DNA of 64,000 nucleotides. Source: Nitrospirota bacterium (GTDB lineage: Bacteria; Nitrospirota; Thermodesulfovibrionia; Thermodesulfovibrionales; JdFR-86). Below the pieces are notes generated by a model, which worked only from the letters and a program-made list of their open reading frames with translations, had not been told where the DNA came from and did no database searches. The translations under genes and the position numbers were made by a program. Within the stretch, counting starts at the first letter, position 1. The number at the start of each line of letters is the position of its first letter. The stretch covers positions 384,001-448,000 of the forward strand of contig CAVRJY010000001.1 of NCBI GenBank assembly GCA_963721805.1, read 5' to 3'. Positions 2,760-64,000 of the stretch are shown piece by piece.

Positions 2760-3254
2760 CGTGGGGATATGTTAACGCAACTTGAAGCAGGGTTGCCAAT
2801 ATATTTTCATTGAACTGGCACGGTTTCCCCTTATCATTAACCGCTGTTTATAAATATTTTCGAGGGCCGCACTTTTTTACAAACCTCTGTTATTAATATA
2901 AACCGTAGTTGGATCGACATTTGCGCCGGGGTATGCTTCAATACGTGATGATGCTCGGATGGGTATTTTTGAGAGCGCGGAAAGGGCGGCCGGAGCCGAT
3001 GGGATACGCGGAAAACGTTTCTGAACGCCTGAACACGGGGGTCGAGAAAAAGCGATGAATTCCGCTGTGTTAGATCATGTTTTCTTCGTTCATTTGAACG
3101 CTCTAAAAAAATACGCGCGGCCGTGCGCAGTAAGTACATATATAACTAAGCCGTTGACCGCTCTAATCATGCCGTTGACCTTGGGGGCGCGGGGGGCGAC
3201 CTTTTTCCGTGCCCCCCGAAAGCGCGGCCAAATCGGCTTCAGACAAGGCAGGGC

Positions 3255-4349
3255 CGCGGATTGTAATGTGAAGTGCAACACCTGTGAAAGAAAAAGCCCA
3301 TCGTCATCCTGTTCTGTTAGAGTCAAGTACCAACCAGACGAAACAGAGAGGGAGGGACGATGGGCTACAGTCATTTTAGCATTGATGAGCGGGAGGGCAT
3401 CGCAAGGATGCGTTATGCGGGGGTGAGCATACGTGAGATCGGGCGCCAGCTTGGCCGCTCGCCATCGAGCGTGAGCCGGGAGCTGCGGCGCAACACGAAG
3501 AAGTCTTTCTATGGCGCGCACGCCGCAACCGTGCTCTATGTCCGCCGAAGGCATTTTGCGAGCAGACGCCTGAAGCGCTGGCCGGACGGCCTGATCGGCT
3601 ATGCGATGGCGGGACTTTGCAGGCGTTGGTCGCCGGAGCAGGTGTCGGGCCGCCTTAAGCTTGACCATCCACATAGCACAGAGATGCGGATATCCTTTGC
3701 CACGCTATACAGATGGATACGGCAGGACAGGGCGATGGGGGGCTCGATGCATCGCATGCTGAGGCGTAAGGGAAGGAGCTACAGAAAAGCCCGGGGGCCT
3801 GAGACCAGGGGCCGGTTCAATGGGGCGTTGAGCATCAGGCAGCGCCCCGAGATCGTGGTCCGGAAGGGACGCTTCGGGGATTGGGAGGCGGATACCGTCT
3901 ACGGGTTCGACGGGAAAACGTGCATCGCAACGTTTAACGAGCGCAAGAGCCTCTACCTTATATCGAGGAAGATGCCGAGGCCCGGCTCGGAGGCGTTGAG
4001 GGAGGCCGCCGTATCGGCGCTGGGAGGCCTGCGGCAGGGCATGCGTATGACCATGACCGTGGACAGGGGCAGCGAGTTTGCATGCTACAGGGACTTAAAA
4101 TACATGATGGGGATCGACGTATACTTCGCCGACCCCTATTGCTCATGGCAGCGCGGCCAGAACGAAAACCTCAACGGGCTGCTGCGGCAGTACTTTCCGA
4201 AGGGGATCGACTTCAACACAGTAACGCAGGAGCAGCTGGATCGCGTCGTTGATGAGATTAACAACAGACCAAGAAAAACGCTGGACTACAGGGCACCCGC
4301 CGAGGTTGCGGCAAATGCGCGCCTGTTGCACTTGGCTTGACAATCCACT
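3255..4349 (+). mobile_element. IS30-family insertion sequence (1095 bp)
   Basis: 26-bp imperfect terminal inverted repeats (CGCGGATTGTAATGTGAAGTGCAACA vs revcomp AGTGGATTGTCAAGCCAAGTGCAACA, 20/26); 2-bp GC target duplication at 3253-3254 and 4350-4351. Confidence 0.93.
3360..4340 (+). CDS. IS30-family DDE transposase
   Basis: N-terminal HTH (SIREIGRQLGRSPSSVSRELRRN), WSPEQ, GDWEADTV, TVDRGSEF, QRGQNENLNGLLRQYFPKG. Confidence 0.96.
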   Translation: MGYSHFSIDEREGIARMRYAGVSIREIGRQLGRSPSSVSRELRRNTKKSFYGAHAATVLYVRRRHFASRRLKRWPDGLIGYAMAGLCRRWSPEQVSGRLKLDHPHSTEMRISFATLYRWIRQDRAMGGSMHRMLRRKGRSYRKARGPETRGRFNGALSIRQRPEIVVRKGRFGDWEADTVYGFDGKTCIATFNERKSLYLISRKMPRPGSEALREAAVSALGGLRQGMRMTMTVDRGSEFACYRDLKYMMGIDVYFADPYCSWQRGQNENLNGLLRQYFPKGIDFNTVTQEQLDRVVDEINNRPRKTLDYRAPAEVAANARLLHLA

Positions 4350-4449
4350 GCGAGAAGACCGCCCGATGGTGTACTGTGACGTACATAGAGGGCGAGTCTT
4401 CGATGCCCAACGACGTATCAAGCGATTTGGAGCGCTTTGAAAAGGGGAG

Positions 4450-7160: not shown

Positions 7161-7928
7161 ATGCGGACGTTGGTGGTGCTACCTACATATAATGAGGTCG
7201 AGAACTTGCCGGTGGTGCTCGAAAAGCTCCTCGCCATGGACATCTGCGACGTCCTGGTCGTCGACGACAATTCCACCGACGGCACGCGCGACGTCGCCCG
7301 CCGGTGGATGGAGCGCTCAAGGCGCGTGCACATGCTCGAGAGGCCGGGGAAGCTCGGGCTCGGCACCGCGTACATAGCCGGATTCAAGTGGGGGCTCGAG
7401 CGCGACTACGGCGTCATGGTCGAGATGGACTCGGACCTCTCGCACAGGCCGGAGGACCTGCCGCGCTTCCTCGCCGAGGTCCACGGCAACGTGGGGCTCG
7501 TGATCGGCTCGCGGTACGTGGGCGGGATCATCAGCGTGGTCGGCTGGAACTTCAAGCGGCTGCTGCTTTCGAGGTTCGGCAACTTCTACGCGGCGTATCT
7601 GCTGAAGTCCCCGCTTTCGGACATGACGAGCGGGTTTCGCGCTTACAGCCGCGAGGCGCTGATGCTGCTGGACCTCGACGCGATACGCTCCGAGGGCTAC
7701 GCGTTTCAGATCGAGATGGCGTACTACGTCTGGCGCAGCGGCCTGCGCGTGATAGAGATACCGATAGTGTTCACCGAGCGTCTCAGGGGCGTGTCGAAGA
7801 TGCACGGAGCGATTGTGAGCGAGGCCATCCGGCTCCCGTGGCGCATCAGGGCGCTGGAGCTGTTCGGCCTGAACCCGGGCGGCAGGGTCCGCCGCAACAA
7901 GACAGGGAGGGCCGATGGCTCCGGCTGA
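7161..7928 (+). CDS. Polyprenol-phosphate mannose synthase-like GT2 (Dpm1/Ppm1 family)
   Basis: PTYNE, DDNSTDGT, KLGLGTAY, MDSDLSH, SGFRAY, GYAFQIEM. Confidence 0.9.
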   Translation: MRTLVVLPTYNEVENLPVVLEKLLAMDICDVLVVDDNSTDGTRDVARRWMERSRRVHMLERPGKLGLGTAYIAGFKWGLERDYGVMVEMDSDLSHRPEDLPRFLAEVHGNVGLVIGSRYVGGIISVVGWNFKRLLLSRFGNFYAAYLLKSPLSDMTSGFRAYSREALMLLDLDAIRSEGYAFQIEMAYYVWRSGLRVIEIPIVFTERLRGVSKMHGAIVSEAIRLPWRIRALELFGLNPGGRVRRNKTGRADGSG

Positions 7929-9375
7929 GGCAGAAGGGCTTTCTGGTATCTACGTGGTCATCATGGCCGGAGGGAAGGGGACCCGCTTTTGGCCCCTCAG
8001 CCGCGAGACGTTCCCGAAGCAGTTTCTGAAGATCGTCGGGGAGCGCACGCTCCTTCAAGACACCATACACCGTCTGGGCGAGGAGGTCTCGCCCTCGCGG
8101 ATCACCTTCGTGACGACCGCCGCGCAGCGCGACCTCGTCAGCTGGCAGGTGCGCGACCAGATAGGCGAGGCCGAGGTCATAGTGGAGCCCGAGGGCCGCA
8201 ACACCGCCCCGGCCATAGCGCTCGCGACCTATAAGATCTTCAAGCGCGACCGCCGGGCGATGATACTCGTGCTGCCCTCCGACCACCATATCGCCGAGCC
8301 CGGGAAGTTCCGCGATACGATGAGGGAGGCTATCCCGGTCGCGGCCAAGGGCAGGCTCGTCACCTTTGGGGTGGTCCCGTCAAGGGCCGAGACCGCATAC
8401 GGCTATATCAAGCGCGGCAAGCCCCTGGGCCCCGGGGGCGCGTATCTGGTCGAGAGGTTCGTCGAGAAGCCCGACCACAAGACCGCGGCGCAGTACCTCA
8501 AGGACGGCTCGTATTACTGGAACGCCGGGATGTTCCTGTTCCGGGCCAAGGACATGATAGAGGAGTTCGCGGCCCACATGCCGGAGCTCCACAAGGCGAT
8601 GAGCGCACTCTCGAAGTCCTTTGACACCGACGGCGAGACCGAGGCGCTCAAGAAGGCCTACCCGAAGCTGCCCGAGGACTCCATAGACTACGGCGTGATG
8701 GAGAAGTCCACGCGCGTCGCGGTCGTCGAGGCAGGGTTCGCGTGGTCTGACATCGGGAGCTGGAACGCGCTTGAAGACGTGCTGGAACGCGACGCGGCCG
8801 GAAACGTCAAGATCGGCAACGTGACAGAGATGGGCTGCGAGGGATCGATATTCTTCGCTGGCGGAAAGCTGATCGCGGCCATCGGGCTTAAGGACACCGT
8901 AGTGGTCGACACCGTCGACGCCACGCTGATCGCGCCCAAGGACAAGGTCCAGCAGGTCAAGGAGCTGGTCGGCCTGCTCAAGAAGGAAGGCAAGGGCGAA
9001 TACCTTTCACCCGCCATCGAGGAGAGGCCCTGGGGGTATTTCTCGGTGCTCGAGCACGGCTCTTCCTACAAGATCAAGCACATATACGTCAAGCCCAAGT
9101 GCAAGCTGAGCCTCCAGATGCACAACCACCGGAGCGAGCACTGGATAGTAGTGGCCGGCTCGGCCCTGGTGCAGCGCGGCGAGGAGACGTTCTTCGTGCA
9201 CCGAAACGAGAGCACCTACATACCGCCCACGGTCAGGCACCGGCTCGAGAATACCGGCATGATACCGCTGCGGATCATCGAGATACAGAGCGGCGAGTAC
9301 CTGGGCGAGGACGACATAATGCGGTTCGACGACTCCTACGGCAGGCTGCCACAGGCCGGGGAGAAGGAAAAATGA
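7915..9375 (+). CDS. manC: Mannose-1-phosphate guanylyltransferase / mannose-6-phosphate isomerase
   Basis: MAGGKGTRFWPLSR, FVEKP, SIDYGVME, WSDIGSW, C-terminal cupin SLQMHNHRSEHW. Confidence 0.93.
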   Translation: MAPAEAEGLSGIYVVIMAGGKGTRFWPLSRETFPKQFLKIVGERTLLQDTIHRLGEEVSPSRITFVTTAAQRDLVSWQVRDQIGEAEVIVEPEGRNTAPAIALATYKIFKRDRRAMILVLPSDHHIAEPGKFRDTMREAIPVAAKGRLVTFGVVPSRAETAYGYIKRGKPLGPGGAYLVERFVEKPDHKTAAQYLKDGSYYWNAGMFLFRAKDMIEEFAAHMPELHKAMSALSKSFDTDGETEALKKAYPKLPEDSIDYGVMEKSTRVAVVEAGFAWSDIGSWNALEDVLERDAAGNVKIGNVTEMGCEGSIFFAGGKLIAAIGLKDTVVVDTVDATLIAPKDKVQQVKELVGLLKKEGKGEYLSPAIEERPWGYFSVLEHGSSYKIKHIYVKPKCKLSLQMHNHRSEHWIVVAGSALVQRGEETFFVHRNESTYIPPTVRHRLENTGMIPLRIIEIQSGEYLGEDDIMRFDDSYGRLPQAGEKEK

Positions 9376-9400
9376 CCGGCGGGATGATATAATACCCGTT

Positions 9401-11269
9401 ATGAAAAATATCATGCCATGGATATCCGAACACCGCACGGTGCTCCTGTGGTGGCTGCTGCCGCTTGCGATTTTCATGTTCATGTACGGGGCCATGCTCA
9501 ATTTCCCGCTCAACGACCCGGACATCTGGTGGCACCTGAAGACAGGCGAGTACATCGTCACCCACTGGGAGGTGCCGAGCGTCGACCCCTTCGCCTACAC
9601 CACCGTAGTCCCGATGGACCACGACAAGCTCCTGGGGATGCGATCTCAGTGGCTCGGGCAGGTGATATTCTACGAGGTATTCAGATTTTTCGGGCTGCCG
9701 GGGCTGGGGATGTTCCGAAACCTGCTCGTGCTGATGCCGATGCTGATAGTCTATCTGTGGCTCATAAGCAGGGGGGTCGGCCATCTGCGGGCCTCGGCTG
9801 TCACGTTCTTCCCGCTGTACATATACGGATACCAGATATTTTACTCCTTTGAGCGTCCGCAGGGGCTGTCGTTCGGGCTGATAGCGCTCGTGCTGGTCCT
9901 GATCGAGCGCGTGCGCGAAAAGAGCCTCAAGCCTGGGATGGACTTCTCTTACTGGCTGCTGCCTCTGGCAATGGCGCTCTGGGCCAACATCCACGGAGGC
10001 TACGTCATCGGCGTGGCCGTGATAGGCATATATCTGGGCTCGGAATTCGCGGTCGAGCTTTATCGAAAGGTGCGCAAAAAGATCAATTTCCAGAGGGGCA
10101 GGGCCTTCTACGCAGCGGGCATAGGCTCGATAGCCGCCACGATGCTGACCCCTAACGGTCCATACCTGTTCCTGTCATATATGTTCGGCGGGATCGACAT
10201 GCTCCAGCGCGACCTGGCGAAGGTCACCTCCGGGATGGTCGGCGGACAGTCGGCGGCCAGCGGCCAGTGGGTCGAGAACATCGTGCTGGAGTTCCGCCCG
10301 CTGAGTTTCTTCTACCACGACCTGGGCTATACGTGGCTTAGGTACTACTGGGCGATGGTCGTGATCGCGATCGCCCTGATGCTGCTGAAGTTCATCCTGC
10401 GCCGCAGGGTCGAGCTGGCGCAGCTGCTCGTCTTCAGCCTGATAGCGTTCATGGCCGAGCAGCACGCGAGGATACTGATGTTCGCCCTGGCGGTGGTGCC
10501 GTTTTATATCGGCAAGGACCTCTCGGAGATCAAGGACCTGCCCGGCAAGCTGTGGGTATCGCTGAGGCTCGGGGCATACGCCTCTATGGTCATCCTCGCG
10601 GTCGGCTTCATGACTTATATGAAGGAGGCCGGCATCTCGCTGAAGCCCAACTTCAAGGCCACCGACCAATGGATAAGCCCGTGGTACCCGTTTGACCTCG
10701 CGCAGTTCATCGAGCAGAACAAGATACCCGGCCCGATGTACAACTACTACACATGGGGCGGGTTCCTCATCTGGAGCCTCTATCCCGACTACCGCGTGTT
10801 CATCGACGGCCGGGCGCTGGACGACCTGGTCAACCGCACCGCGGACAGCATCCTGAAGACCGCGCCCGGATGGGACCAGCAGCTTGACGTCTACGGGATC
10901 AACTTCGTCGCGATACCGGTCATATACCGCGAATCCGGCCATATCATCCAGCTCGCCCCGGCCCTCGCGGAAAACCCGAACTGGAAGCTTATCTTCCTGG
11001 GCAACAACAGCGCCCTGTTCATACGCGACGTGCCGATGAACAAGGACCTGATAGACAAGTACAGCATCGACAAAAACGCGGTCTTCACCGAGATCATCGA
11101 CCTCGAGAACATGTTTTTGAGGGGCAACCCCACCAGCCCGGTCTACAACTTCGCCAAGGCCGACAGCCTGTTCCTGCTCGGCAAGTACGACGAGGCCAAG
11201 GCGATCTATTCGAGGTTCCCCGACTTGGCAGCCCCGGCGCTGCAGCGTCTCAAGGAGATGGGGCACTAA
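9401..11269 (+). CDS. Polytopic membrane protein, GT-C-like glycosyltransferase candidate with C-terminal TPR-like helices
   Basis: DPDIWWHL..G, ERPQ, WANIHGG, FIDGR motifs; many TM helices. Confidence 0.65.
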   Translation: MKNIMPWISEHRTVLLWWLLPLAIFMFMYGAMLNFPLNDPDIWWHLKTGEYIVTHWEVPSVDPFAYTTVVPMDHDKLLGMRSQWLGQVIFYEVFRFFGLPGLGMFRNLLVLMPMLIVYLWLISRGVGHLRASAVTFFPLYIYGYQIFYSFERPQGLSFGLIALVLVLIERVREKSLKPGMDFSYWLLPLAMALWANIHGGYVIGVAVIGIYLGSEFAVELYRKVRKKINFQRGRAFYAAGIGSIAATMLTPNGPYLFLSYMFGGIDMLQRDLAKVTSGMVGGQSAASGQWVENIVLEFRPLSFFYHDLGYTWLRYYWAMVVIAIALMLLKFILRRRVELAQLLVFSLIAFMAEQHARILMFALAVVPFYIGKDLSEIKDLPGKLWVSLRLGAYASMVILAVGFMTYMKEAGISLKPNFKATDQWISPWYPFDLAQFIEQNKIPGPMYNYYTWGGFLIWSLYPDYRVFIDGRALDDLVNRTADSILKTAPGWDQQLDVYGINFVAIPVIYRESGHIIQLAPALAENPNWKLIFLGNNSALFIRDVPMNKDLIDKYSIDKNAVFTEIIDLENMFLRGNPTSPVYNFAKADSLFLLGKYDEAKAIYSRFPDLAAPALQRLKEMGH

Positions 11270-11324
11270 GGCCGCCCCCGCAGGCGCGCGGTTGGGGGCG
11301 ACGGGAGACAGCGGGGCCATCGGC

Positions 11325-12972
11325 ATGCGCTTGGGCCCCCTGTTTGACAGGATACTCCCAGCTGCGTTTATTGCCGCCTGCGCGCTGTTTTATCTCGGCC
11401 CCATCGTAGAGGGCGATTTCTTCTGGCACCTGAGGGCCGGGCAGCAAATTGCCCTCAAGGGCATACCCTCCCATATACCAATACCCACCGAATGGGCCGG
11501 CCAGTGGCTCCTTTATGATATCTGGCGCCTGGGGGGCGGGGCCGCGGGGATAGTCCTGTTCAGGGCCACGGCGTACGTGCTGCTGCTGTGGCTGCTCTAT
11601 GCGTGGATGAGGCGCGGGGGGGCGGGGCGGTACGCCTCGCTGTTGCTGCTGTTTTTCCCTGCCGCGCTGTTTATGTCCTTCCCCAACGAGAGGCCGCAGC
11701 TCTTCACCTTCCTGCTATTCCCGCTCTGCGTGCTGCTGCTTGAACGGCACCGCGTTCGAGGCGGGCTTTGGCCCGCCGTCCTCCTGGGCCTGATGCTCCT
11801 CGTCTGGGCCAACGTGCATGCCGGGTTCCTGCTCGGCTACGCGGCCGCCTGTGTCTACTTCGCCGTCGCGGCATGGAGGGCGGCCACAAGGACCGCTCCG
11901 CCGTCGAGGGCCGTATCGCTCGGCGTCGTGCTAGTGCTGCCCGTGCTGCTGATGCTGTTTTACGGGGTCGATATCCCGGGGCTGGCGCGCCTGGTATGGG
12001 CGCAGGTCTTCAGCCCGACCGGCTATAGCGAGAGCCTCCAGGAAAACCTGCCCCCGCTTGTGGCGGCGCGGGCGATGGGCGAGTATTACCCCGCTTACTG
12101 GGGCTCGCTCCTGATGGTCGCGCTCGGGCTCTGGCATGGCCGCAAGCACCGCAGCATGCAGGCCGAGCACGCACTGCTGCTGATAATGTTCAGCGCCCTG
12201 TCGCTTCGGTCGCTGCGGTTCATGCCCTATCCGGCGATGCTCCTGCCGCTTGCGGCCGCGCAGGTCTCCGGCGCACTTGAAATCGACGGACGCCGCCTCT
12301 CGAAGTTCATGGGGCCCGCGGTCTTGGGCGCGGTGCTGGCCGCATGGTTCATCCTCGCCCACCCGGTGATAAGCCTCGATGCCAGCCCGGAGTTCCCGCG
12401 CGGGGCGGTGGAGTTCCTGGGGACGGCGCAGACCGGGGGCGATCTGTTTGTCTACCACGGCTGGACGGGGTATCTCTACTGGATGCTCCCCGGAGAAGCG
12501 GCAGCTGATGCGCGTCGAGGGCATCACGGAGGCGATGGACGAGGCTTACGACAAGATACTCTGGGCCGACGGGACGGACGTGATGGGCGAGCCCCAGTGG
12601 AGCGCGACGCTCGACGCCTACGGCCTCGACGTGATCGTCGTGCCGGCCATGAGCCCGGTATCGGGCGAGCGGTTCCCGATAGTGGACGCGCTGCTTCAAA
12701 GCGCGCATTGGTATCTCGTCTACCAGGACGATGTCGCGAACGTATATCTGAAGGACACCCCCGAAAACGCGGCCGTCATACGCCTGGATTCCCGGCCCAA
12801 GGCCAACGCGTATCTGCAGGGCGTGGAGCAGGCCCGGCGTGAGCTTGCAGGCGAGCCGCGCCGCGCCGCCGCATGGCGGAGCCTCGAGGAGCTTTACCTT
12901 AAACTCGGCCTGAAGAACGAGGCCGCCAGGGCCGCGCGGCGCGAGCTTCCGCCCCCGCTTGTACGGCGCTGA
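11325..12972 (+). CDS. Second GT-C-like membrane protein (frameshift near 12490)
   Basis: GDFFWHL..G, ERPQ, WANVHAG paralogous to the upstream gene; C-terminus continues in ORF 12379-12972. Confidence 0.6.
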
Positions 12973-13054
12973 GTGCGGTTAAATACCGTTGCGCCGGATG
13001 GCCCCCGGGGGGCCCCCTGCACGCGGCGCGGTATTTTGTTAGAATAATAGCCTT

Positions 13055-13534
13055 ATGAAGAAGAAAGCCAAAATCGCGGAGCGTCCGGGCTGGGACAGGT
13101 ATTTCCTGAACATCGCGCGCGAGGTCTCGAGGCGCGCCACGTGCTTCCGCCGCCGCTACGGCGCGGTCATCACCAAGGACAACAGCATCGTGAGCACCGG
13201 GTATAACGGCGCACCGCGCGGCATGACCGACTGCCTTACGGCAGGCGTATGCACCCGCAAGGAGCTGCAAGTGCCGCACGGCGAGCGCTACGAACTGTGC
13301 CACAGCGTCCATGCCGAGGCCAACGCGATTATCCGCGCCTCCATGCTCGAGATGAACGGCTCGGTGATATACATTAACGGCGCGGACGATGCCGATGCCG
13401 AGTGCGACTCGGCCCCGTGCATGATGTGCAAGCGCATGATCCTCAACGCCCGCATAGGGCGCGTGGTATACGCCGACGGCAAGGGCGGCATCATCGACGT
13501 CGACCCAGCCGACTGGCTGAATGAACGGATATAG
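13055..13534 (+). CDS. dCMP deaminase / ComEB family
   Basis: RPGWDRYF, TGYNGAP, HAEANA, PCMMC zinc motifs. Confidence 0.9.
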   Translation: MKKKAKIAERPGWDRYFLNIAREVSRRATCFRRRYGAVITKDNSIVSTGYNGAPRGMTDCLTAGVCTRKELQVPHGERYELCHSVHAEANAIIRASMLEMNGSVIYINGADDADAECDSAPCMMCKRMILNARIGRVVYADGKGGIIDVDPADWLNERI

Positions 13535-26053: not shown

Positions 26054-26085
26054 CGGGTATTTTATCCTATCGCGAGGCTTTCTTC

Positions 26086-26257
26086 AAAGCGCTCCAAATC
26101 GCTTGATACTGCGTTGGGCATTGAAGACTCGCCCTCTATGTACGCCCAAGTACACCATCGGGCGGTCTTCTCGCCCTGCCTAGTCTGAAGCCGATTTGGG
26201 CGCGCTTTCGGGGGGCACGGAAGAAGGTCGCCCCCCGCGCCCCACAAGGTCAAAGGT
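26086..26257 (+). repeat. Long structured element, copy 4 (type A)
   Basis: Full hairpin; ends GGTCAAAGG; lies in a divergent intergenic region. Confidence 0.9.
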
Positions 26258-26665
26258 GTGTTCGGATGCTCGCGCTTAGGTATAGTTACGCATACCGCGC
26301 GCGCGCGTTTTATTTTATGTGTTCGGATGTTTGAGGCAAATACGCGGATAAGCCCCTGGAAAACATCGTTTTTCCGAGTCCGGCGCTGTTCGGATGTTCG
26401 AATAATTCGCGCGGTTTTCGACCCTGCCTCCGAAAACGCGTCGATGCCCGCTTCATTCGTTGCCCCGCCCATTGGATATGCGATTATCTTGCTCATAGCA
26501 CCACTATACAACAAACAATGCGATACTTTGGTTTATATATAAACCGAAGTTGATAGTAAAAATTGATGCCCGTGCGTTTTCAACTAACTTACGATTAACC
26601 AAAGTTTATGAGTGAGGCCGGCAGAGAGTTCGAACCAACCGAATCCGGCAGGATATCCGCGCAGT

Positions 26666-29259: not shown

Positions 29260-31152
29260 ATGGGCGCAGCCGCACAGACGTCGATTGGCACGGCCAATCC
29301 GGTCTCGATAATGTTCTTCCTTGCCTTCGTCGCCGCCACTCTCGTAATAACCTACTGGGCCGCGAAGCGCACGCGCACGACCAAGGACTTCTACGCCGCC
29401 GGACGCTCGGTCACCGGTTTCCAGAACGGCCTCGCGCTCGCGGGAGACTACATGAGCGCCGCCTCGTTTCTGGGCATCGCCGGGCTCGTCTCGCTCAAGG
29501 GCTATGACGGCCTGATTTACTCCGTCGGCTGGCTCGTAGGCTGGCCGGTCATCATGTTCCTGATCTCCGAGCCGCTTAGGAACCTCGGCAAGTACACGTT
29601 TTCGGACGTCGTGGCCTACCGCCTGAAGCAGCGCCCGATCCGGGGCGCGGCCGCCGCGGGCTCGCTCGTGACGGTGCTTTTCTACCTGATCGCACAGATG
29701 GTCGGCGCCGGGACGCTCGTGAAGCTCATGTTCGGTCTCCCGTTTGAGGTCGCGGTCATAGCCGTAGGCATACTGATGATCTCCTACGTCCTGTTCGGAG
29801 GCATGATCGCCACGACGTGGGTCCAGATCATCAAGGCCGGGCTGCTCCTTGGGCGGCGCGACCCTGCTCGTATTCCTGACGCTCTCGAAGTTCGACTTCA
29901 GCTACGCAAACCTCTTCGGGCAGGCCGAGAAGCTCTACACCAACAAGTTCCTCGAGCCCGGCGGCCTGATCTCAAGCCCGCTTGAGGCCTTCTCTCTGGG
30001 CCTCGCGCTGATGTTCGGCACGGCCGGGCTCCCGCACATCCTCATGAGGTTCTACACCGTGCCTGACGCCAAGGCCGCGCGCAAGTCCGTGTTCTACGCA
30101 ACCGGGTTCATCGGGTATTTCTACATCCTCACCGTGACGATCGGCTTTGGCGCGGCGGTGCTCGTCGGCCAGAAGTTCATCATGGGCATCGACGCCGGGG
30201 GCAACATGGCCGGCACCGCTGCTGGCCGAGGTCTTGGGCGGCAACGTATTCCTTGGGCTTCCTCGCGGCCGTCGCGTTCGCGACGATCCTCGCGGTCGTC
30301 TCGGGCCTGACGCTCGCCGGGGCATCCGCGCTCTCGCACGACCTTTACGTCGGCGTGATCAGGCGCGGCGAGGCCTCCGAGCGTGACGAGGTGCGCGTGG
30401 CCAAGGGCGCGACCGTGCTGCTCGGCATCACGGCCATGGCGCTTGCGATACTGTTTAAGGGCCAGAACGTCGCGTTCATGGTCGGCCTTGCGTTTGCGGT
30501 GGCATGCAGCGCGAACTTCCCGGCCCTCCTGATGTCGATCCTCTGGAAGAAGTTCACTACCGCCGGGGCGGTCCTGAGCATCATCACCGGCCTCGTGCTC
30601 GCGGCCGGGATGATCTTCCTGAGCCCCACGGTCTGGGTCGAGGTCATACACAAGGCAGACGTGGCGGCGGTCGGCAAGAATGTCGCTGGCATCGACGCCG
30701 CAATGAAGGCCAAGGTCGCGGATATCGAGAAGCAGACCGCTTCCGCCAAGGCGGCGGTCGAGCAGGCGGACAAGGACATGGCCGCGATGATGGCCCCCGC
30801 GGCACCGGCAGCAAAGGGCGCCAAGACGATGAAGAAGTCCACAAAGGCAGAGGCTGAGGCCAAGACAAAGATGGCCGCGATCGATAAGCAGAAGGCCGAC
30901 GCGACCGCACTCATCGCCAAGGCTGACGCCGATACAAAGGCGGCCAAGGACGAAGCGTTATCATTGACCACCGAGGCCAAGAAGGCCATGCCCAAGGCGA
31001 TCTTCCCGTACCGCAACCCGGCCATCTTCTCGATGACCGCCGCGTTCCTCATAGGCATATTCGCCTCGCTGATCGCCCCTGACAAGGAGGCGGAGAAGAA
31101 GTTTGCGGGACAAAAAGTTCGCGAATATATCGCATTAGGAGCTGAGGACTAG
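29260..31152 (+). CDS. actP: Cation/acetate symporter (SSS family), frameshifted near 29850 and 30200-30250
   Basis: [52 protein letters not shown]. Confidence 0.9.
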
Positions 31153-31176
31153 TCGTAGCTCACCACCGCTAGCATC

Positions 31177-31217
31177 AAACAAGGGGGCCGACTCTGGCCC
31201 CCTTGTTTTTCCTTTTT
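31177..31217 (+). terminator. Terminator after actP built on a REP-like palindrome
   Basis: AAACAAGGGGGCC-GACTCT-GGCCCCCTTGTTT plus T-tract. Confidence 0.8.
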
Positions 31218-31218
31218 C

Positions 31219-31252
31219 AAAGCGCTCCAAATCGCTTGGGGCCGACCGGCCC
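31219..31252 (+). repeat. 5' fragment of the long element fused to a REP palindrome
   Basis: AAAGCGCTCCAAATCGCTTG followed by GGGCCGACCGGCCC. Confidence 0.8.
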
Positions 31253-31311
31253 TCTTCACATTGAACATTGTCGCTGTAACTTTTCTATTGGTTGTTTTAT
31301 ACTTTATTACC

Positions 31312-32013
31312 ATGACCGATTTGGATGCCATATGCCAGGACTTTGAAAAGAAGCTCTCGCTTTTCAGGGCAGAGGTTTCATCGGCCGAAGACTGCTACTA
31401 CTTGCAAAAGACGATCCATGGGCTGATCCTCAAAAACGACAAGATATACGCAGAGCTCTACAGGAACGGTTTTTTCTGGCAGAGCGTATTGAACGCAGCC
31501 CGCGATAACCTGATCGGCACCCTTAGCAGGATATTCACCAGAAGGCAAAAGGATTTCTCCATTGGCGAGCTTTTAAAGACCTGCCGCCTGCACAGGGAAA
31601 TCTTTTCGAAAGCAGAGCTTAGAAAAAGGAAGTCAAAGGACCTGTCGCCGGACGTCCTCGTGAATATCTTGCGAGACATCCCCGAGGAGCCTGCATCTGA
31701 GGACGACATCATGCTGCTCGAAAAACAGATCGAGTCCTGTACCGATATCTTCGACAAGAACTACCGGGAAATCAGGGATGAGTTTTCGGCGCAGCGGGAT
31801 CTGAAATTTCTGGGCAAGGAGGGCGAACTGGCAAGCGGTGCCGCAGTTGGAGAGATCGAGGCCATACTCGACCTGCTCGACAGGGTGCACAGCTCGCTTT
31901 ACATGCTCTACTATAACGGCTTCCCGCTGGACGTGAATGTGGCGGAATCGACGAACTTTAAATATAAGCTGATTAAACAGACCGAGAGTGTGCTTCTAAC
32001 CCTGACAAAATAG
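31312..32013 (+). CDS. HEPN/AbiU2-like protein
   Basis: All-helical character, LSRIF...SIGELL, IRDEFSAQRD at the HEPN Rx4-6H position; low GC. Confidence 0.55.
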   Translation: MTDLDAICQDFEKKLSLFRAEVSSAEDCYYLQKTIHGLILKNDKIYAELYRNGFFWQSVLNAARDNLIGTLSRIFTRRQKDFSIGELLKTCRLHREIFSKAELRKRKSKDLSPDVLVNILRDIPEEPASEDDIMLLEKQIESCTDIFDKNYREIRDEFSAQRDLKFLGKEGELASGAAVGEIEAILDLLDRVHSSLYMLYYNGFPLDVNVAESTNFKYKLIKQTESVLLTLTK

Positions 32014-32048
32014 TATTGAATGGTTTGTCTTATCACTTACCTGTTTTT

Positions 32049-32225
32049 AAAGCGCTCCGAATCGCTTGATACGTCGTTGGGCATCGAAGACTCGCCCTCT
32101 ATGTACGTCACAGTACACCATCGGGCGGTCTTCTCGCCCTGCCTTGTCTGAAGACGATTTGGGCGCGCTTTCGGGGGTTGGTCGCGGCTCCGCCGCTGGA
32201 CCCCCGCTTCCATAAGGTCAACGGT
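32049..32225 (+). repeat. Long structured element, copy 5 (type A core, Y-type 3' hairpin)
   Basis: Starts 35 nt after the upstream stop; near-identical to 32821-32997. Confidence 0.92.
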
Positions 32226-32268
32226 TTGTGTTCTTATGTGATATAATGTACACAAGGAGGCACAAGCC

Positions 32269-32532
32269 ATGCCACAGACCACCACGATGACCGTCAGGAT
32301 TCCATCAGACGTAAAGGACAGGCTCGAGCGTCTGGCCCGATCCACGGACAGGACGAAGGCCTACATCGCGGGCCGGGCAATAGAGGATTACCTCGATGTG
32401 CAGGAATGGCAGGTAAGCGCCATTAGCGACGCGGTGCGCGAGGCTGACTCTAAAAAAGCCGTCTTCCTGTCACACGCAGAAGTGGAGTCAAGGGTCAATA
32501 AGAAGATCATCGCCACCGGAAAGCGTAAGTGA
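32269..32532 (+). CDS. CopG/RHH antitoxin
   Basis: TMTVRIP..VKDRLERLA..TDRTKAYIAGRAIEDYL. Confidence 0.88.
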   Translation: MPQTTTMTVRIPSDVKDRLERLARSTDRTKAYIAGRAIEDYLDVQEWQVSAISDAVREADSKKAVFLSHAEVESRVNKKIIATGKRK

Positions 32533-32810
32533 GGGTTCAGTGGCTTACTAGCGCGGCGGATGACATGGAACAGCTCATTGACTACATTGCCGCTGATAAT
32601 CCCTCAGCCGCCGCCACCGAGGCCCGGAAGGTCATGGAGGCCATAAGGCAACTTGCCGAGCATCCCGCTTCAGGCCGTACGGGCCGGGTGTTCGGCACGC
32701 GTGAACTGGTCCTGCCTCCATATATTATTGCCTATAGGGTCAAGGGCGAGGCTGTCCAGATACTTCGCATACTCCACTCCGCCCGGAGATTTCCAAATAA
32801 GCTGCCGTAG
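32529..32810 (+). CDS. RelE/ParE-family toxin
   Basis: YIAADNPSAA, GRTGRVFGTRELV, ILRILHSAR; GTGA overlap with the antitoxin. Confidence 0.9.
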   Translation: MRVQWLTSAADDMEQLIDYIAADNPSAAATEARKVMEAIRQLAEHPASGRTGRVFGTRELVLPPYIIAYRVKGEAVQILRILHSARRFPNKLP

Positions 32811-32820
32811 CCCTCTTTTC

Positions 32821-32997
32821 AAAGCGCTCCAAATCGCTTGATACGTCGTTGGGCATAAAAGACTCGCCCTCTATGTACGTCTCAGTACACCATCGGGCGG
32901 TCTTCTCGCCCTTCCTTGTCTGAAGACGATTTGGGCGCGCTTTCGGGGGTTGGTCGCGGCTCCGCCGCTGGACCCCCGCTCCCCTGTGGTCAACGGC
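32821..32997 (+). repeat. Long structured element, copy 6
   Basis: Starts 10 nt after the toxin stop; ends GGTCAACGGC. Confidence 0.92.
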
Positions 32998-33105
32998 ATA
33001 GATTAAAAGTTATGAGTGTGCAAGGCGGCGGGGTGCTTAAAATTCTCTGGCATGCGCAATGGGGTTGTGGTATCCTTGGCACATGAAACTGCCAAGGTTC
33101 GGGAA

Positions 33106-33594
33106 ATGACAGGAACTACGCCTAAACGTCATGTTCTCCTCATTGTTGCCGTCTCGTTCACAATACTTCATTTCATCATAACCTCTCTTGTCGGGCATTA
33201 CATAGCAATTCAAGTTGGATCCATTGCCGGCCAGTCAGTTGCTAATATGTTGAAAGAATCCACTGGAAACACTTCGTCTTCAGATAATGAGATCAATGAT
33301 CGCCTTCAGGCAATGCGGAATAATATCGACGAACAAATATCCAGATGGAAGCTGCCAGTGATACTGATATCGTTACCGATCAGGCCGATAATCCAGCCCT
33401 TGCTTAGTGTTGCGCGTAAAGGTTGGATTTATGGGCCGGTTGTTTCTCATCAGCTTTCTAAGGAGCAGGCAGCTACGCGCCTTGTTATCATTGATACTGG
33501 CGTTAAAATCTTAAACTCACTTTCGTTTGGACTGTTGATTTATTTGGGCTGCTGGCTATTCTATAAACGTAAACGCGTAATGACAACAGAATAG
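33106..33594 (+). CDS. Hypothetical membrane protein, low GC
   Basis: Open frame with 2-3 hydrophobic segments and AT-rich codons; start uncertain. Confidence 0.65.
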   Translation: MTGTTPKRHVLLIVAVSFTILHFIITSLVGHYIAIQVGSIAGQSVANMLKESTGNTSSSDNEINDRLQAMRNNIDEQISRWKLPVILISLPIRPIIQPLLSVARKGWIYGPVVSHQLSKEQAATRLVIIDTGVKILNSLSFGLLIYLGCWLFYKRKRVMTTE

Positions 33595-33630
33595 ACGATT
33601 CAAAGTCCCCTACACAGATAACTCAAACAA

Positions 33631-33681
33631 GCCGTTGACCTTGGGGTGCGGGGTCCAGCGGCTGGGCCGCACTTAACCCCC
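33631..33681 (-). repeat. 3' module only of the long element
   Basis: Y-type hairpin plus GGTCAACGGC, abutting the hicA stop codon. Confidence 0.82.
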
Positions 33682-33861
33682 TCAGCAGGCCCCGAGTTGC
33701 CTCCTGATAAGGTCGCAAAGCGTGTTTTTGATTTCCGCATGTCTTGGGATAGGGGCCTTGCGGCCATTGGTGGGGTTCAGATAAATGTCATGGTTCGCGC
33801 CATGCCTCTTAAGCACGCAGCCTTTATCCAGCAACTCCCGGATCAGTTCTCCGCGCTTCAA
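33682..33861 (-). CDS. hicA: HicA-family toxin, 59 aa (absent from the ORF track)
   Basis: Manual translation MKRGELIRELLDKGCVLKRHGANHDIYLNPTNGRKAPIPRHAEIKNTLCDLIRRQLGAC; TTG start overlaps the hicB TGA. Confidence 0.88.
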   Translation of the reverse strand: MKRGELIRELLDKGCVLKRHGANHDIYLNPTNGRKAPIPRHAEIKNTLCDLIRRQLGAC

Positions 33862-34064
33862 ACCTCTACGCCTATCTCCTTGCGCTCGACGGCCCCTACC
33901 GGCGGGGCTTCTTCGTCATCCATCAGGAGCTGGTAGACCTCCCTGATGTTGTTTTCGAGTTCGTCGAGGCTCTCGCCCTGCGTGAATACGCCGGGGACCT
34001 CTTTGAGCCTGCCCACGTACCATGTGTCGTCCATCCAGTATTCAAGGGTAAAGTGCCTGAGCAT
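33858..34064 (-). CDS. hicB: Short HicB-family antitoxin without DNA-binding domain
   Basis: YVGRLKEVPGVFTQGESLDELENNIRE; AGGAGG RBS. Confidence 0.88.
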   Translation of the reverse strand: MLRHFTLEYWMDDTWYVGRLKEVPGVFTQGESLDELENNIREVYQLLMDDEEAPPVGAVERKEIGVEV

Positions 34065-34118
34065 CGCGCACCTCCTTAGTTGAATTATAACAGATGGCCG
34101 TCAGGCGCTTCTAATCAA

Positions 34119-34293
34119 GCCTTTGACCTCGGGGTGCGGGGTCCAGCGGCTGGGCCGCTATTAACCCCGCAAAGCGCGATAAATCGTGTCAGACTAGGAG
34201 CCTGCGAGGAAAACGTCCGACGGTGTACTGAGACGTACATCGAGGACGGATTTCCGAGCGGTGACAACGTATCACGCGACTTTAGCGCGCTTT
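34119..34293 (-). repeat. Long structured element, copy 7 (diverged type B core)
   Basis: Same hairpin architecture with compensatory substitutions; starts 13 nt after the PhoU-like gene stop. Confidence 0.88.
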
Positions 34294-34306
34294 CAGAGAG
34301 CGTTCC

Positions 34307-34897
34307 CTATGGACATTTGGTTTCCGCGATCTCTCTGGCATACCACGCTATCGACTTGATACAGTCCAGCATCTCAATGAACAACCCCGACGCGACCGGC
34401 AGGCACAGCCCCTCGATCAGCCGGTCCTCGTGCGCCGTGGCCGCGTCGTCGGCCGCCTTCTCGACGACCGTCTCGGTCCTGATGACGTGCAGCGCCCCCA
34501 GGGCCGAGCCGGTCAGCACGTAGTCCTTCGTATGCACGATTATGTCCCTGAGGCGCTCCATGAGGTAGCCGAGTTCCTTATATGCCTTGTCGCTGAACAG
34601 TATCTGGCCCGAATGCTTGGCCGCGATGGCCGCCTCGATGCGCACCATATATCTGAGCATCTGCTCTAGCCGCGTGACGGTCGGGATCAGGCAGGCCACG
34701 TTGGGGTCCTTCCTGACGTCCTTGACCAGGGCCTCGACGAGCATGTGAAGCCCGCCCTGCATCTCGTCGAGCCTGGCCCTCGCCCCGGCGATCAGGGGGG
34801 CGTCGAACCTCTGCAGCGACTTGTGCGATGCGTCGAGCCCCTCGGTCAGGGCCGGGAAGAAATCCTCCATTATGGCGGCGAATGCGGTCTTGGCCAT
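34307..34897 (-). CDS. PhoU-domain-like protein
   Basis: ILFSDKAYKEL, HEDRLIEGLC.P.ASGLFIEMLD, resembling the Na/Pi-cotransporter C-terminal PhoU-like region; GGAGG RBS. Confidence 0.65.
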   Translation of the reverse strand: MAKTAFAAIMEDFFPALTEGLDASHKSLQRFDAPLIAGARARLDEMQGGLHMLVEALVKDVRKDPNVACLIPTVTRLEQMLRYMVRIEAAIAAKHSGQILFSDKAYKELGYLMERLRDIIVHTKDYVLTGSALGALHVIRTETVVEKAADDAATAHEDRLIEGLCLPVASGLFIEMLDCIKSIAWYAREIAETKCP

Positions 34898-34952
34898 GGC
34901 TGCCTCCTGTACGCGGTTCGGTTCAAGTCCGGGCGTTTCTGCCCTCAGCCCG

Positions 34953-34981
34953 ATCATATCAGATAACCCGCCGGGACGCAA
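34953..34981 (-). promoter_or_regulatory. Sigma70-like promoter of the PhoU-like gene
   Basis: TTGCGT-17 nt-TATGAT on the minus strand. Confidence 0.5.
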
Positions 34982-42145: not shown

Positions 42146-42188
42146 ACTATGCTACCTATCGGTCACATTTCGGTCAAGGGGCCAAGTG

Positions 42189-42224
42189 AAAGCGCGCCAA
42201 ATCGCTTGGGGCCGACTGGCCCCC
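42189..42224 (+). repeat. 5' fragment of the long element fused to a REP palindrome
   Basis: AAAGCGCGCCAAATCGCTTG followed by GGGCCGACTGGCCCC; same junction as 31219. Confidence 0.8.
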
Positions 42225-42442
42225 CTCCTTCAGGTGGCTCCGCCCCCTTGGCCCTCGTGGGCTATTGAAAGCCACTGTGCCGCCTGGAAAAGTGAGCGTG
42301 GCCAGATGGCCACGCGAATAGGGAAAGGGGCCATCCGGTCCCATTGACAGCTCCCGGAACTCGCGGTAGACTTCACTCAGGGAACACGTTGGCGAGAAAT
42401 ATCACAACCTAACGCGTGGCTGGGATCCGGAGGTGACGGGCT

Positions 42443-43659: not shown

Positions 43660-43735
43660 TGGTGGGCAGTCGCAGAATCGAACTGCGGACACGTAGCTTT
43701 TCAGGCTACTGCTCTACCGGCTGAGCTAACTGCCC
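43660..43735 (-). tRNA. tRNA-Phe (GAA)
   Basis: 76-nt cloverleaf GGGCAGT...ACTGCCC-A-CCA, anticodon arm GTAGC-CTGAAAA-GCTAC, T-loop TTCGATT. Confidence 0.96.
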
Positions 43736-43823
43736 GTCCTCCCGATAAGAAACCGTAGTTTAACCGTTCAGCCCCAACAGTTGTCAAGGCGCCACGGGGG
43801 GCCGACTGGCCCATCTTCTAAAA

Positions 43824-43994
43824 GCCGTTGACCGCGAGGCGCGGAGGCAGCGGTTGGGCCGCGCACTTCGCAAAGCGCGATAAATCGCGTCAGACTAGGA
43901 ACGGCGAGGAAAACGTCCGACGACGTACTGAGACGTACTTCGAGGACGGATTTCCGAAGCCGTGACAACGTATCACGCGACTTTGGCGCGCTTT
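43824..43994 (-). repeat. Long structured element, copy 8 (type B)
   Basis: First A coincides with the TGA of the nitroreductase; ends GGTCAACGGC. Confidence 0.88.
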
Positions 43995-44644
43995 CATTCC
44001 ATCCACTTCATAATTTCGCCAAGCGGTGCCCGTTCGGTGCGGAACTGGTTCATGGGGTGCCCCATGTCCGCGTACCCGACCGAGAGCCCGAGGCAGAGCC
44101 GCTTTGAGGCGTCGATGCCGAGGACCTCTTTCACGATGGCCGAGTAGTCGGTCAGGAATGCCTGCGGGACCGAGCCCACGCCGTGGGCGAATGCGGCGAG
44201 CATCAGGGTTTGGGCGAACAGGCCCATGTCGAAGAGAGACCACGCGCCGAGGGCCGAGTCCTGAAAAAGGTATATCCCGTGCGGGGCGCCGTAGAACCTG
44301 AAGTTGGCCTCCTTCGACTTGCGCGCGAGATCGGGGTCCGAGGCGTTTATGCCGCGCCTGCTAAACAGGGCGTCGATGCGGGTCTGGTTGACCGCGGGCC
44401 ACGAAGTGGCGGCCGGGATGTCGGGGGTGGGCGGAAACCCGGCGGCAAGGGCCTCGACGAGCCGCGCGCTTAACGCCTCCTTGGCCGCGCCGCTTAGTAT
44501 GATGGCCTCCCAGGGCTGGGTGTTTTTGTATGACGGGCTTCTGAGCGCGGCCTCTACAATGGCCTCGAGGGTCGCGCGAGGTACTGGGTCGGGCCTGAAC
44601 TTCCGTACGCTCCACCTGCCTTTGATGCACTCGATAGCGTCCAT
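43994..44644 (-). CDS. Nitroreductase family protein
   Basis: RWSVRKF, SPSYKNTQPW, FYGAP, GLSVGY. Confidence 0.92.
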   Translation of the reverse strand: MDAIECIKGRWSVRKFRPDPVPRATLEAIVEAALRSPSYKNTQPWEAIILSGAAKEALSARLVEALAAGFPPTPDIPAATSWPAVNQTRIDALFSRRGINASDPDLARKSKEANFRFYGAPHGIYLFQDSALGAWSLFDMGLFAQTLMLAAFAHGVGSVPQAFLTDYSAIVKEVLGIDASKRLCLGLSVGYADMGHPMNQFRTERAPLGEIMKWME

Positions 44645-63726: not shown

Positions 63727-63770
63727 GACTCCAGTCCAAAACCTGCGGGCCGGGTCGCGCGTAAGCGCCC

Positions 63771-64000
63771 CGGCCCGCTTGCACGTTCAGCCCCCCGCTT
63801 ATCACGCTTGCAGCAAGAGAAGGGCCTGTGGCCCCCCGGCCCGCTTGCACGTTATTTATCACGCTTGCGGTAGGGGAAGGGGGCAGTCGCCCCCCGGCCC
63901 GCTTGCACGTTCAGCCCCCCGCTTATCACGCTTGCAGCAAGGGAAGGGGCCTGTGGCCCCCCGCCCGCTTGCACGTTAGTTATTTATCACGCTTGCGGTA
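63771..64000. repeat. Tandem alternating A/B palindromic repeat array running off the window end
   Basis: CCCGCTTGCACGTT...TTATCACGCTTGC units at about 63771, 63837, 63895, 63961 (66/58/66 bp), separated by GC hairpins. Confidence 0.85.

Follow-up and report, generated by a model that had tools for sequence, protein, structure and literature searches.

A locus of ~3 kb in the genome of a bacterium of the phylum Nitrospirota raises the question of how small accessory genes come to lie among copies of a folded repeat. The locus (positions 31203-34306) is part of a 64,000-nt stretch of DNA (GenBank assembly GCA_963721805.1, contig CAVRJY010000001.1, positions 384,001-448,000), hereafter called the window, and is situated between a gene for an SSF/ActP-like symporter and the dsr region. 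The original prediction, made from the letters alone, described five pieces of a hairpin element and four cargo units within ~3 kb and considered them a possible gene-cassette array. Both counts were confirmed by a repeat search and by nhmmer: a single repeat of ~190 nt is represented by five pieces, alongside which are four small units of cargo, two of them toxin-antitoxin (TA) gene pairs. Such clustering exceeds chance, as the genome has a mean of 0.26 elements per 3.1 kb. The reading that we favour, and of which we are about evenly confident and doubtful, is that of a small accessory-gene islet on a genome-wide structured repeat resembling repetitive extragenic palindromes (REPs) and miniature inverted-repeat transposable elements (MITEs), the tail ends of which would be landing pads for mobile DNA.

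The Repeat Element

The analysis covered the whole genome (2.78 Mb in 9 contigs, GC content ~0.60, 94% complete). Copies of the element were called by the repeat search of the window and by an nhmmer model derived from 137 genomic copies of near-full length, which gave 236 matches, together ~1.6% of the genome. The consensus of ~190 nt comprises an 8-nt T-rich leader at the head of the element, a 135-nt hairpin core, and a variable tail or 3' module with a GC hairpin. The ends of the core are terminal inverted repeats of 16-17 nt, in which AAAGCGCNCCAAATCG pairs with CGATTTGGGCGCGCTTT. The GC hairpin of the tail is of at least three types and terminates in the near-invariant sequence GGTCAAYGGCAT. 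This 12-nt terminus is the most conserved part of the otherwise variable module; it is near-invariant among 174 tails, and conservation fades within ~20 nt beyond it. Core and tail subtypes are found in several combinations, and tails that stand alone number only ~10 genome-wide.

In 74 aligned copies, RNAalifold predicted 32 base pairs in the core, 18 of which are retained despite changes on both sides. Because these pairs covary, the fold is under selection, either as RNA or as single-stranded DNA. The cores of the three full copies at the locus, designated E1, E2, and E3, form long hairpins (z-scores -5.21, -6.54, and -3.51), and none of 200 shuffled sequences folded as well. Among the four 3' modules of the locus, only that of E3 folds better than shuffled sequences (z-score -3.65). 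When the whole window was searched against Rfam 15 at the gathering threshold, only tRNA was recognised; with E-values up to 1, the region 31100-34400 gave two chance-level matches, neither of them on an element core. The repeat thus constitutes an uncatalogued family with a covariation-supported fold.

Position of the Elements Relative to Genes and Foreign DNA

Genes were called with a crude codon-usage caller, which found 2746 genes and ~87% coding sequence. By these calls, none of the full copies of the element is within a gene. Of 193 full copies, 130 have their head turned to the end of a co-oriented gene, at a median distance of 9.5 nt and within 30 nt in 105 cases, and the median distance from the tail side to the next gene is 245-316 nt. 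The genes directly 5' of heads (n = 121) have a median GC content of 0.622, vs. 0.619 genome-wide, and 5% of them are below 0.55. Since these genes are native-like, a gene with a trailing element is not in itself the mark of a cassette. One of the few exceptions is the HEPN gene of the locus (GC 0.50), which precedes E1; the RHH/ParE genes before E2 (GC 0.56-0.58) are just above the 0.55 line.

Elements often occur as close neighbours, with 88 pairs less than 2 kb apart where 36 were expected. Among the 108 pairs of neighbours less than 3.5 kb apart, 57 are tail-to-tail, 40 tandem, and 11 head-to-head, whereas neighbours further apart show the opposite bias (16 tail-to-tail vs. 60 head-to-head). 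The DNA between facing tails, which we call a slot, mostly has a GC content of 0.34-0.52 and in a minority of cases of 0.53-0.62, to be compared with 0.60 for the genome; in seven tail-to-tail pairs, of which five have full cores, the elements are separated by 65 nt or less, which leaves no room for cargo. The gaps between tandem elements mostly contain ordinary-sized native genes (GC 0.57-0.65), and ~8 of the 40 have a GC content of 0.54 or lower. An element is found within ~400 nt of 68 of the 164 low-GC islets of the genome, vs. ~18 expected after random placement, and of the 96 elements that flank an islet, 93 have their tail toward it. The original prediction had suggested testing whether accessory DNA is enriched beside elements throughout the genome, and this proved to be so: 81 of the 166 spacers that contain an element have at least 600 nt of extra DNA between consecutive native genes, vs. 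115 of the 1938 element-free ones. The difference is seen in each class of gene pair, whether convergent, tandem, or divergent; per orientation class, extra DNA is present in 4-13% of the element-free spacers and in 72-82% of those with two elements. The association of elements with accessory DNA is real; it extends over the whole genome and has a strict geometry.

The nature of this accessory DNA was assessed by a Pfam scan of 131 open reading frames (ORFs) from 49 slots. TA modules are represented by HicA, Gp49 with HTH, ParE with Phd, HepT with MNT, DUF4160 with DUF2442, DUF2283 with DUF4258, and MazE, and restriction-modification by an MmeI-type enzyme and a methylase-Mrr fusion. Other cargo includes Abi_C, a HEPN protein, a KAP NTPase, an HNH nuclease, and two insertion-sequence families, and many ORFs belong to no Pfam family. 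A second HicA unit, besides that of the locus, is located in another slot and has a partial element 3' of it. A left/right polarity of the slots was considered and rejected: mixed tail types were found in 19 pairs vs. 15.8 expected (P 0.17).

An association of this kind could have arisen without any mechanistic link, if repeats and foreign genes survived in the same few permissive spacers. The compactness of the genome as judged by the crude caller would be in line with such passive co-accumulation, as would the insertion sequences of three unrelated families that also gather in or near elements, the 96 of 164 low-GC islets without an element, and the left end, away from any element, of a 21-kb lineage-specific segment that includes the locus (see below). 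However, the geometry is too strict for it: tails are directed toward foreign DNA almost without exception, head-to-head pairs are rare among close neighbours, elements are not scattered among the cargo genes, and the enrichment exists within each gene-orientation class. We regard an entirely passive link as quite unlikely.

The predominance of inverted pairs suggests another possibility, i.e., that the pair and its content form a composite non-autonomous transposon, with the 190-nt elements as long, heads-out terminal inverted repeats and with a transposase that would move the unit. Near-empty pairs and solo copies would then be deletion or MITE forms. The heads indeed point outward in 57 of the 68 oppositely oriented close pairs, pairs with cargo are also found between tandem or divergent native genes, in which case one head is directed toward the start of a gene, and the core itself has terminal inverted repeats. 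MITE-bounded composite units are known in Acinetobacter (PMC3934969). Nevertheless, the longest words shared by the two flanks of 168 full copies were distributed as in the control, with two single exceptions of 16 and 11 nt, in a test that was run on single copies rather than on the outer flanks of pairs and that is blind to target-site duplications under ~5 nt. Furthermore, paired elements share their subtype no more often than by chance, no module is present twice, no transposase gene sharing the ends of the element was found as far as we looked, and the placement of heads against stop codons is much more regular than ordinary transposition would give. Thus, composite transposition appears highly unlikely.

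Insertion sequences have a particular relation to the elements. In two families, all 16 copies are located 0-977 nt from an element, whilst a third family is inserted at the same position of the core in five of its seven copies. Because of this shared position, the latter, an insertion sequence of ~1.1 kb, appears to target the element core. One copy of it splits an element in the window (3169-4447, minus strand) and contains an ORF (3360-4340, plus strand) for a protein of 326 amino acids with an HTH_38 domain, which is IS30-like by reading. Another companion of the elements is an AT-rich module, designated X; within 26079-26599 (plus strand), an element is directly followed by a copy of ~340 nt. 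The module contains repeated TGTTCGGAT motifs, a CGCGCG run, and a palindromic TTTGGTTTATATATAAACC stretch, without a conserved ORF. Genome-wide, module X (~360 nt) is placed after the tail in ~30 elements. As an explanation of the locus it was ruled out, since it is absent from the slot at 33000-34116.

Organization of the Locus

The left flank of the locus is formed by the SSF/ActP-like symporter gene, which is located behind a DUF485 gene and ends at 31152. It is followed by a hairpin resembling an intrinsic terminator (31177-31208, plus strand), with a stem of 14 pairs and then TTCCTTTTTC, the T-run of which runs into the leader of the first element piece. This piece, stub E0 (31203-31257, plus strand; repeat-search families D6 and D13), contains the T-rich leader and the initial ~20 nt of the core (AAAGCGCTCCAAATCGCTTG), together with a small GGGGCC hairpin. 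In a 278-nt contig from public reads of a ~90%-identical relative (run X2, see below), the end of a core plus a 3' module are joined to position 31238. Since the core end and the tail in this contig are complete, E0 was once a full element, and it is probably an internally deleted copy. Its portion 31219-31257 is 90% identical to 42189-42227, which is part of a second short form of the "head plus GGGGCC hairpin" type elsewhere in the window (42173-42227). This second copy suggests that the short form is a recurrent variant and not the product of a single deletion.

The first cargo unit is a single gene (31312-32013, plus strand) for a protein with a HEPN_AbiU2 domain (PF18734, E 3.6e-10, 40.1 bits vs. 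a cut-off of 26.8). It is present in one copy in the genome and matches no PADLOC or NCBIfam model. Behind it lies E1 (32036-32225, plus strand; nhmmer 32044-32225, 178 bits), a full element with leader, hairpin core, and a type-b 3' module. The second unit is a TA pair on the same strand, composed of an RHH/RelB-like antitoxin gene (32269-32532; RHH_1 E 4e-4; the NCBIfam RelB-like match of 44.3 bits is below the cut-off of 50) and a ParE/RelE-family toxin gene (32529-32810; ParE_toxin E 2.2e-18; NCBIfam RelE_StbE 31 bits, cut-off 27.9). The leader of the next full element, E2 (32808-32999, plus strand; nhmmer 32816-32999, 183 bits), begins right after the ParE stop codon. E1 and E2 (repeat family D2) are 94% identical and are each other's best match within the genome.

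The tail of E2 opens a tail-to-tail slot (33000-34116) that is closed by the tail of E3 and is an ordinary member of its class. It first contains an orphan ORF of low GC content (0.43) at 33106-33594 (plus strand), with an alternative GTG start at 33016, for which no family was found in Pfam, PADLOC, or NCBIfam. Judged by eye from hydrophobic stretches in the translation, its product is a putative membrane protein. Upstream of this ORF, a non-coding motif of 52 nt (33035-33086) was noted that has counterparts of 81-87% identity in two further slots (C1:479855-479906 and C4:139500-139553, where C1 and C4 denote contigs of the genome). It may be a promoter or a regulatory site common to slot cargo.

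The remainder of the slot is occupied by units on the minus strand. A solo 3' module (33629-33681; match to the tail hidden Markov model; family D15) begins, without any spacer, immediately past the stop codon of a hicA toxin gene (33682-33861; HicA_toxin E 4.9e-8). The partner gene, hicB (33858-34064), encodes a weak HicB/UPF0150-like antitoxin, both matches being below their cut-offs. The solo module forms a direct repeat with the tail of E3 (91% identity over 56 nt). E3 itself (34117-34306; nhmmer 34298-34117, 137 bits) is a full element with a divergent core subtype and a type-b tail, and it trails a core gene of no known family (34307-34957, minus strand), which is divergent from dsrA, with dsrAB beyond. 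Outside the window, the tail terminus was also seen to be directly repeated where an ORF ends: at C1:1057230-1057335, an ORF of 113 codons stops 1 nt before GGTCAACGGCATTGATATGG, and the same terminus of ~21 nt is found again 60 nt on, behind a partial core end and a tail.

How do these assignments bear on the description of the locus as an array of defence and TA genes? The TA part stands, as profile matches identified RHH_1 with ParE_toxin and HicA_toxin with a weak HicB-like partner, in both cases as the adjacent genes that are usual for type II TA systems, and the HEPN domain was likewise found by profile. Because PADLOC matched none of the seven proteins tested, however, the word defence applies by virtue of the HEPN domain only. 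Apart from the 52-nt motif, the cargo has no counterpart elsewhere in the genome, as no paralogue of any of its genes was found. The claim that units end at a co-oriented element is correct for the HEPN gene (E1) and for RHH/ParE (E2), but E3 trails 34307-34957 and the trailer of hicBA is the solo 3' module.

Some further features of the window deserve mention. The reading frame of the symporter gene is broken into three (29260-29985, 29849-30310, and 30253-31152). Single bases at 29849, 30210-30215, and 30252-30258 are missing from public contigs of the same organism and of a relative, and the frame splits are probably assembly indels rather than signs of a pseudogene. A tRNA gene (43663-43735) is located ~90 nt from an element copy (43822-43997), both within the region 43663-43997 (minus strand). 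At 63765-63983, two direct repeats of 95 nt (89% identical; families D8 and D12) with an internal sub-repeat of 44 nt are unrelated to the element.

Are the Repeats Sites of Cassette Integration?

Alternation of genes and folded sites is what an undescribed cassette system would produce, in which circular units of a gene plus an element, or of a gene plus a 3' module, integrate site-specifically at an element by means of an enzyme encoded elsewhere. Several features of the locus agree with this. Three units are bracketed by direct repeats, i.e., the HEPN gene by E0 and E1, RHH/ParE by E1 and E2, and hicBA by two tails, which is the expected pattern because one-site integration of a circle would leave it. 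The hicA stop codon abuts a tail, and the second HicA unit also has element sequence behind it. The strong conservation of the terminus within a variable module, and the combinations of core and tail subtypes, which exchange at a junction would give, point in the same direction, as do the ~8 of 40 tandem pairs elsewhere that enclose DNA of low GC content.

The machinery and the genomic context argue otherwise. In a search of the 94%-complete genome with TIGR02249, the best match to an integron integrase scored 68.8 bits vs. a cut-off of 265, and none of the seven matches to Phage_integrase, the family of the tyrosine recombinases, is in the window, in accordance with the earlier statement that no integrase is encoded there. 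The Y1 transposase genes (PF01797) of the genome are limited to six identical frames of 144 codons in an IS200-type unit of ~603 bp, 170-977 nt from elements; no other Y1 gene, such as a single-copy one of the kind associated with REPs, was found. The original prediction also held that canonical attC ends are lacking, and this remained so: inspection by eye of the element alignments, in which no attC model was applied, did not reveal an attC architecture. The nearest attC-like word is GGTCAAC in the tail terminus, one mismatch away from RYYYAAC, and by eye no complementary GTTRRRY partner was seen within the same element. Neither did the terminus resemble a dif site by eye, in what was not a formal comparison. 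Moreover, most tandem pairs enclose native genes, the genes before heads are native-like, solo tails are few, the cargo of the locus is single-copy, and hicBA occurs without a tail in other genera. The solo tail is no nearer to the E3 tail than to other type-b tails. Integration of circular units by a dedicated enzyme is therefore, in our estimation, unlikely.

A broader variant is conceivable, if doubtful: the repeats could be attachment sites of chromosomal gene capture that works without an integron integrase, with ~50 tail-bounded slots swapping TA, restriction, and defence modules by recombination at the invariant terminus, carried out by a host enzyme or an unrecognised one acting on folded DNA or RNA. 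What survives of the proposal that the elements are capture or recombination sites for cassettes is their tie to accessory DNA, the strict geometry, and the direct-repeat bracketing. The trailing of native genes by heads, the lack of an integron integrase and of attC sites, and the single-copy cargo do not fit it.

Relatives and Public Reads

The surroundings of the locus were compared with those in 30 genomes of the same family or order, all belonging to other genera. Homologues of 34307-34957, with 32-37% identity, adjoin dsrA in five family relatives, and in all five, they are directly followed by a radical-SAM gene and the cargo of the locus is absent. Next comes a block matching window positions 7173-12972 in all three relatives with enough sequence. 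No orthologue of the radical-SAM gene was found in the genome under study. In its place stands a segment of 21.3 kb (13055-34306), which has no counterpart in three family relatives. The right-hand synteny break is the stop codon of 34307-34957, which the head of E3 abuts. The cargo is thus not syntenic in relatives without the element, and its absence from the orthologous place, together with the position of this break, supports the favoured view of an islet on a landing-pad repeat. As the relatives are distant, with proteins 32-84% identical, the comparison carries little weight.

Homologues of hicBA were detected in three of the 30 relatives, with 68-71% nucleotide identity and on contigs other than those with the dsrAB matches. 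No element and no tail motif was found with these three homologues, and nhmmer found no match to the element in 10 dsr neighbourhoods of relatives. A metagenome search with the protein encoded by 34307-34957 returned one weak, uninformative locus of 1.3 kb. Two public sequencing runs from freshwater sediments were also considered, one of the same organism (X1; depth 2-4, contigs of 150-220 nt) and one of the ~90%-identical relative (X2). In the parts that they cover, cargo units were neither bridged by a contig nor skipped at a joint; the uncovered parts are uninformative. The reads contain two opposite-strand joints, 31255/34259 and 32923/34176, each in one low-depth contig, which probably stem from other copies of the element.

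How the Islet May Have Been Assembled

We infer the tail to be the site of entry of foreign DNA, and the way of entry may be envisaged as follows. The head of an element is normally found at a distance of 0-30 nt from the end of a native gene with the same orientation, and the tail points away from that gene. The DNA beyond the tails, above all that between facing tails, is the genome's store of foreign DNA. The conserved tail terminus, or an inverted pair of tails, would act as a landing pad where mobile DNA inserts or recombines, and the structured elements would shield the neighbouring genes, as a result of which insertions could persist. At the locus, the symporter gene and 34307-34957 would each first have carried an element. 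The HEPN gene, RHH/ParE, the membrane ORF, and hicBA may then have arrived successively beside tails, accompanied by local duplication or recombination of element copies. Such a course of events would fit the mutual nearest relationship of E1 and E2 and the bracketing of hicBA by two tails, and its outcome would mimic cassettes of a gene plus a site.

Several observations weigh against this scenario. No entry event at a tail was observed, and the repeat was found in none of the 30 relatives. Exact-pattern scans of 185,579 species genomes (two scans) and of metagenome contigs (one scan) were empty; their patterns were fixed at 21-28 positions, and diverged copies would be missed because exact matches were demanded. 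The left-hand break of the 21-kb segment (~12972-13055) is not at an element. The enrichment statistics rest on a crude gene caller, and a tie between elements and extra DNA also arises if both pile up in permissive spacers. About 59% of the low-GC islets have no element nearby. Finally, E1 and E2 follow accessory rather than native genes, which requires an extra step, i.e., spread or duplication of the element.

If tails do direct the entry of foreign DNA, the elements would represent a new way to organise a repertoire of defence and addiction modules, in dozens of small bounded slots along the chromosome vs. one integron or a few large islands. This would bear on the question of how compact genomes take up genes without damage to operons and could provide a portable landing-pad sequence. 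If gene capture at the repeats were true, they would constitute a new kind of cassette platform; a purely passive link would make the locus an accessory islet of the ordinary kind, strewn with copies of an abundant repeat.

Comparison With Known Systems

The element shares several properties with the REP and bacterial interspersed mosaic elements (BIMEs) and the REP doublets forming hairpins (REPINs) of Proteobacteria: it is an abundant extragenic palindromic repeat, located near stop codons, forms inverted doublets, and is a target of insertion sequences. Proximity to stop codons and the attraction of insertion sequences are known features of REPs. However, the present element is ~5 times longer and modular, with a leader, a 135-nt core, and a variable tail, and no single-copy gene for a REP-associated tyrosine transposase (RAYT) of the Y1 type was found besides the six identical IS200-type copies. 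To our knowledge, a strict orientation of tails toward foreign DNA has not been described for REPs.

MITE-like structured repeats, such as Correia/NEMIS, ERIC, and RUP, are reviewed in PMC3184786. Like the present element, they are intergenic repeats of the 100-200-nt class with terminal inverted repeats and long hairpins, and they can be co-transcribed with neighbouring genes. In contrast to them, no target-site duplication was detected here, and no parent insertion sequence was identified. We know of no counterpart of the 3' module with its invariant 12-mer among such repeats.

In Neisseria, dRS3/RS arrays are mosaic intergenic repeats that serve as integration and recombination sites, and minimal mobile elements are small cassettes swapped between conserved flanks, an exchange that relies on natural transformation and on homology of the flanking genes. 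The elements described here differ from these mosaic elements in sequence, size, and phylum.

The dif modules of Acinetobacter are accessory or TA modules bounded by inverted XerC/D sites (PMC6449649, PMC13141974). The slots resemble them in being discrete, often TA-containing accessory modules between inverse copies of a conserved site, without a recombinase gene inside. Their sites are 28-bp Xer sites, mostly on plasmids, whereas the present ones are chromosomal repeats of 190 nt.

With integron cassettes and attC arrays, the locus has in common small ORFs, often for TA modules, a closely following folded site, co-oriented tandem units, and a site at the stop codon. The attC sites of integrons measure 57-141 nt. 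In contrast, the genome contains no IntI, the site is 190 nt long, most elements trail native genes, and inverted pairs prevail. The fit to an array of ORFs plus sites is local, comprising two tandem units and hicBA with its tail, whereas genome-wide the tail-to-tail arrangement dominates.

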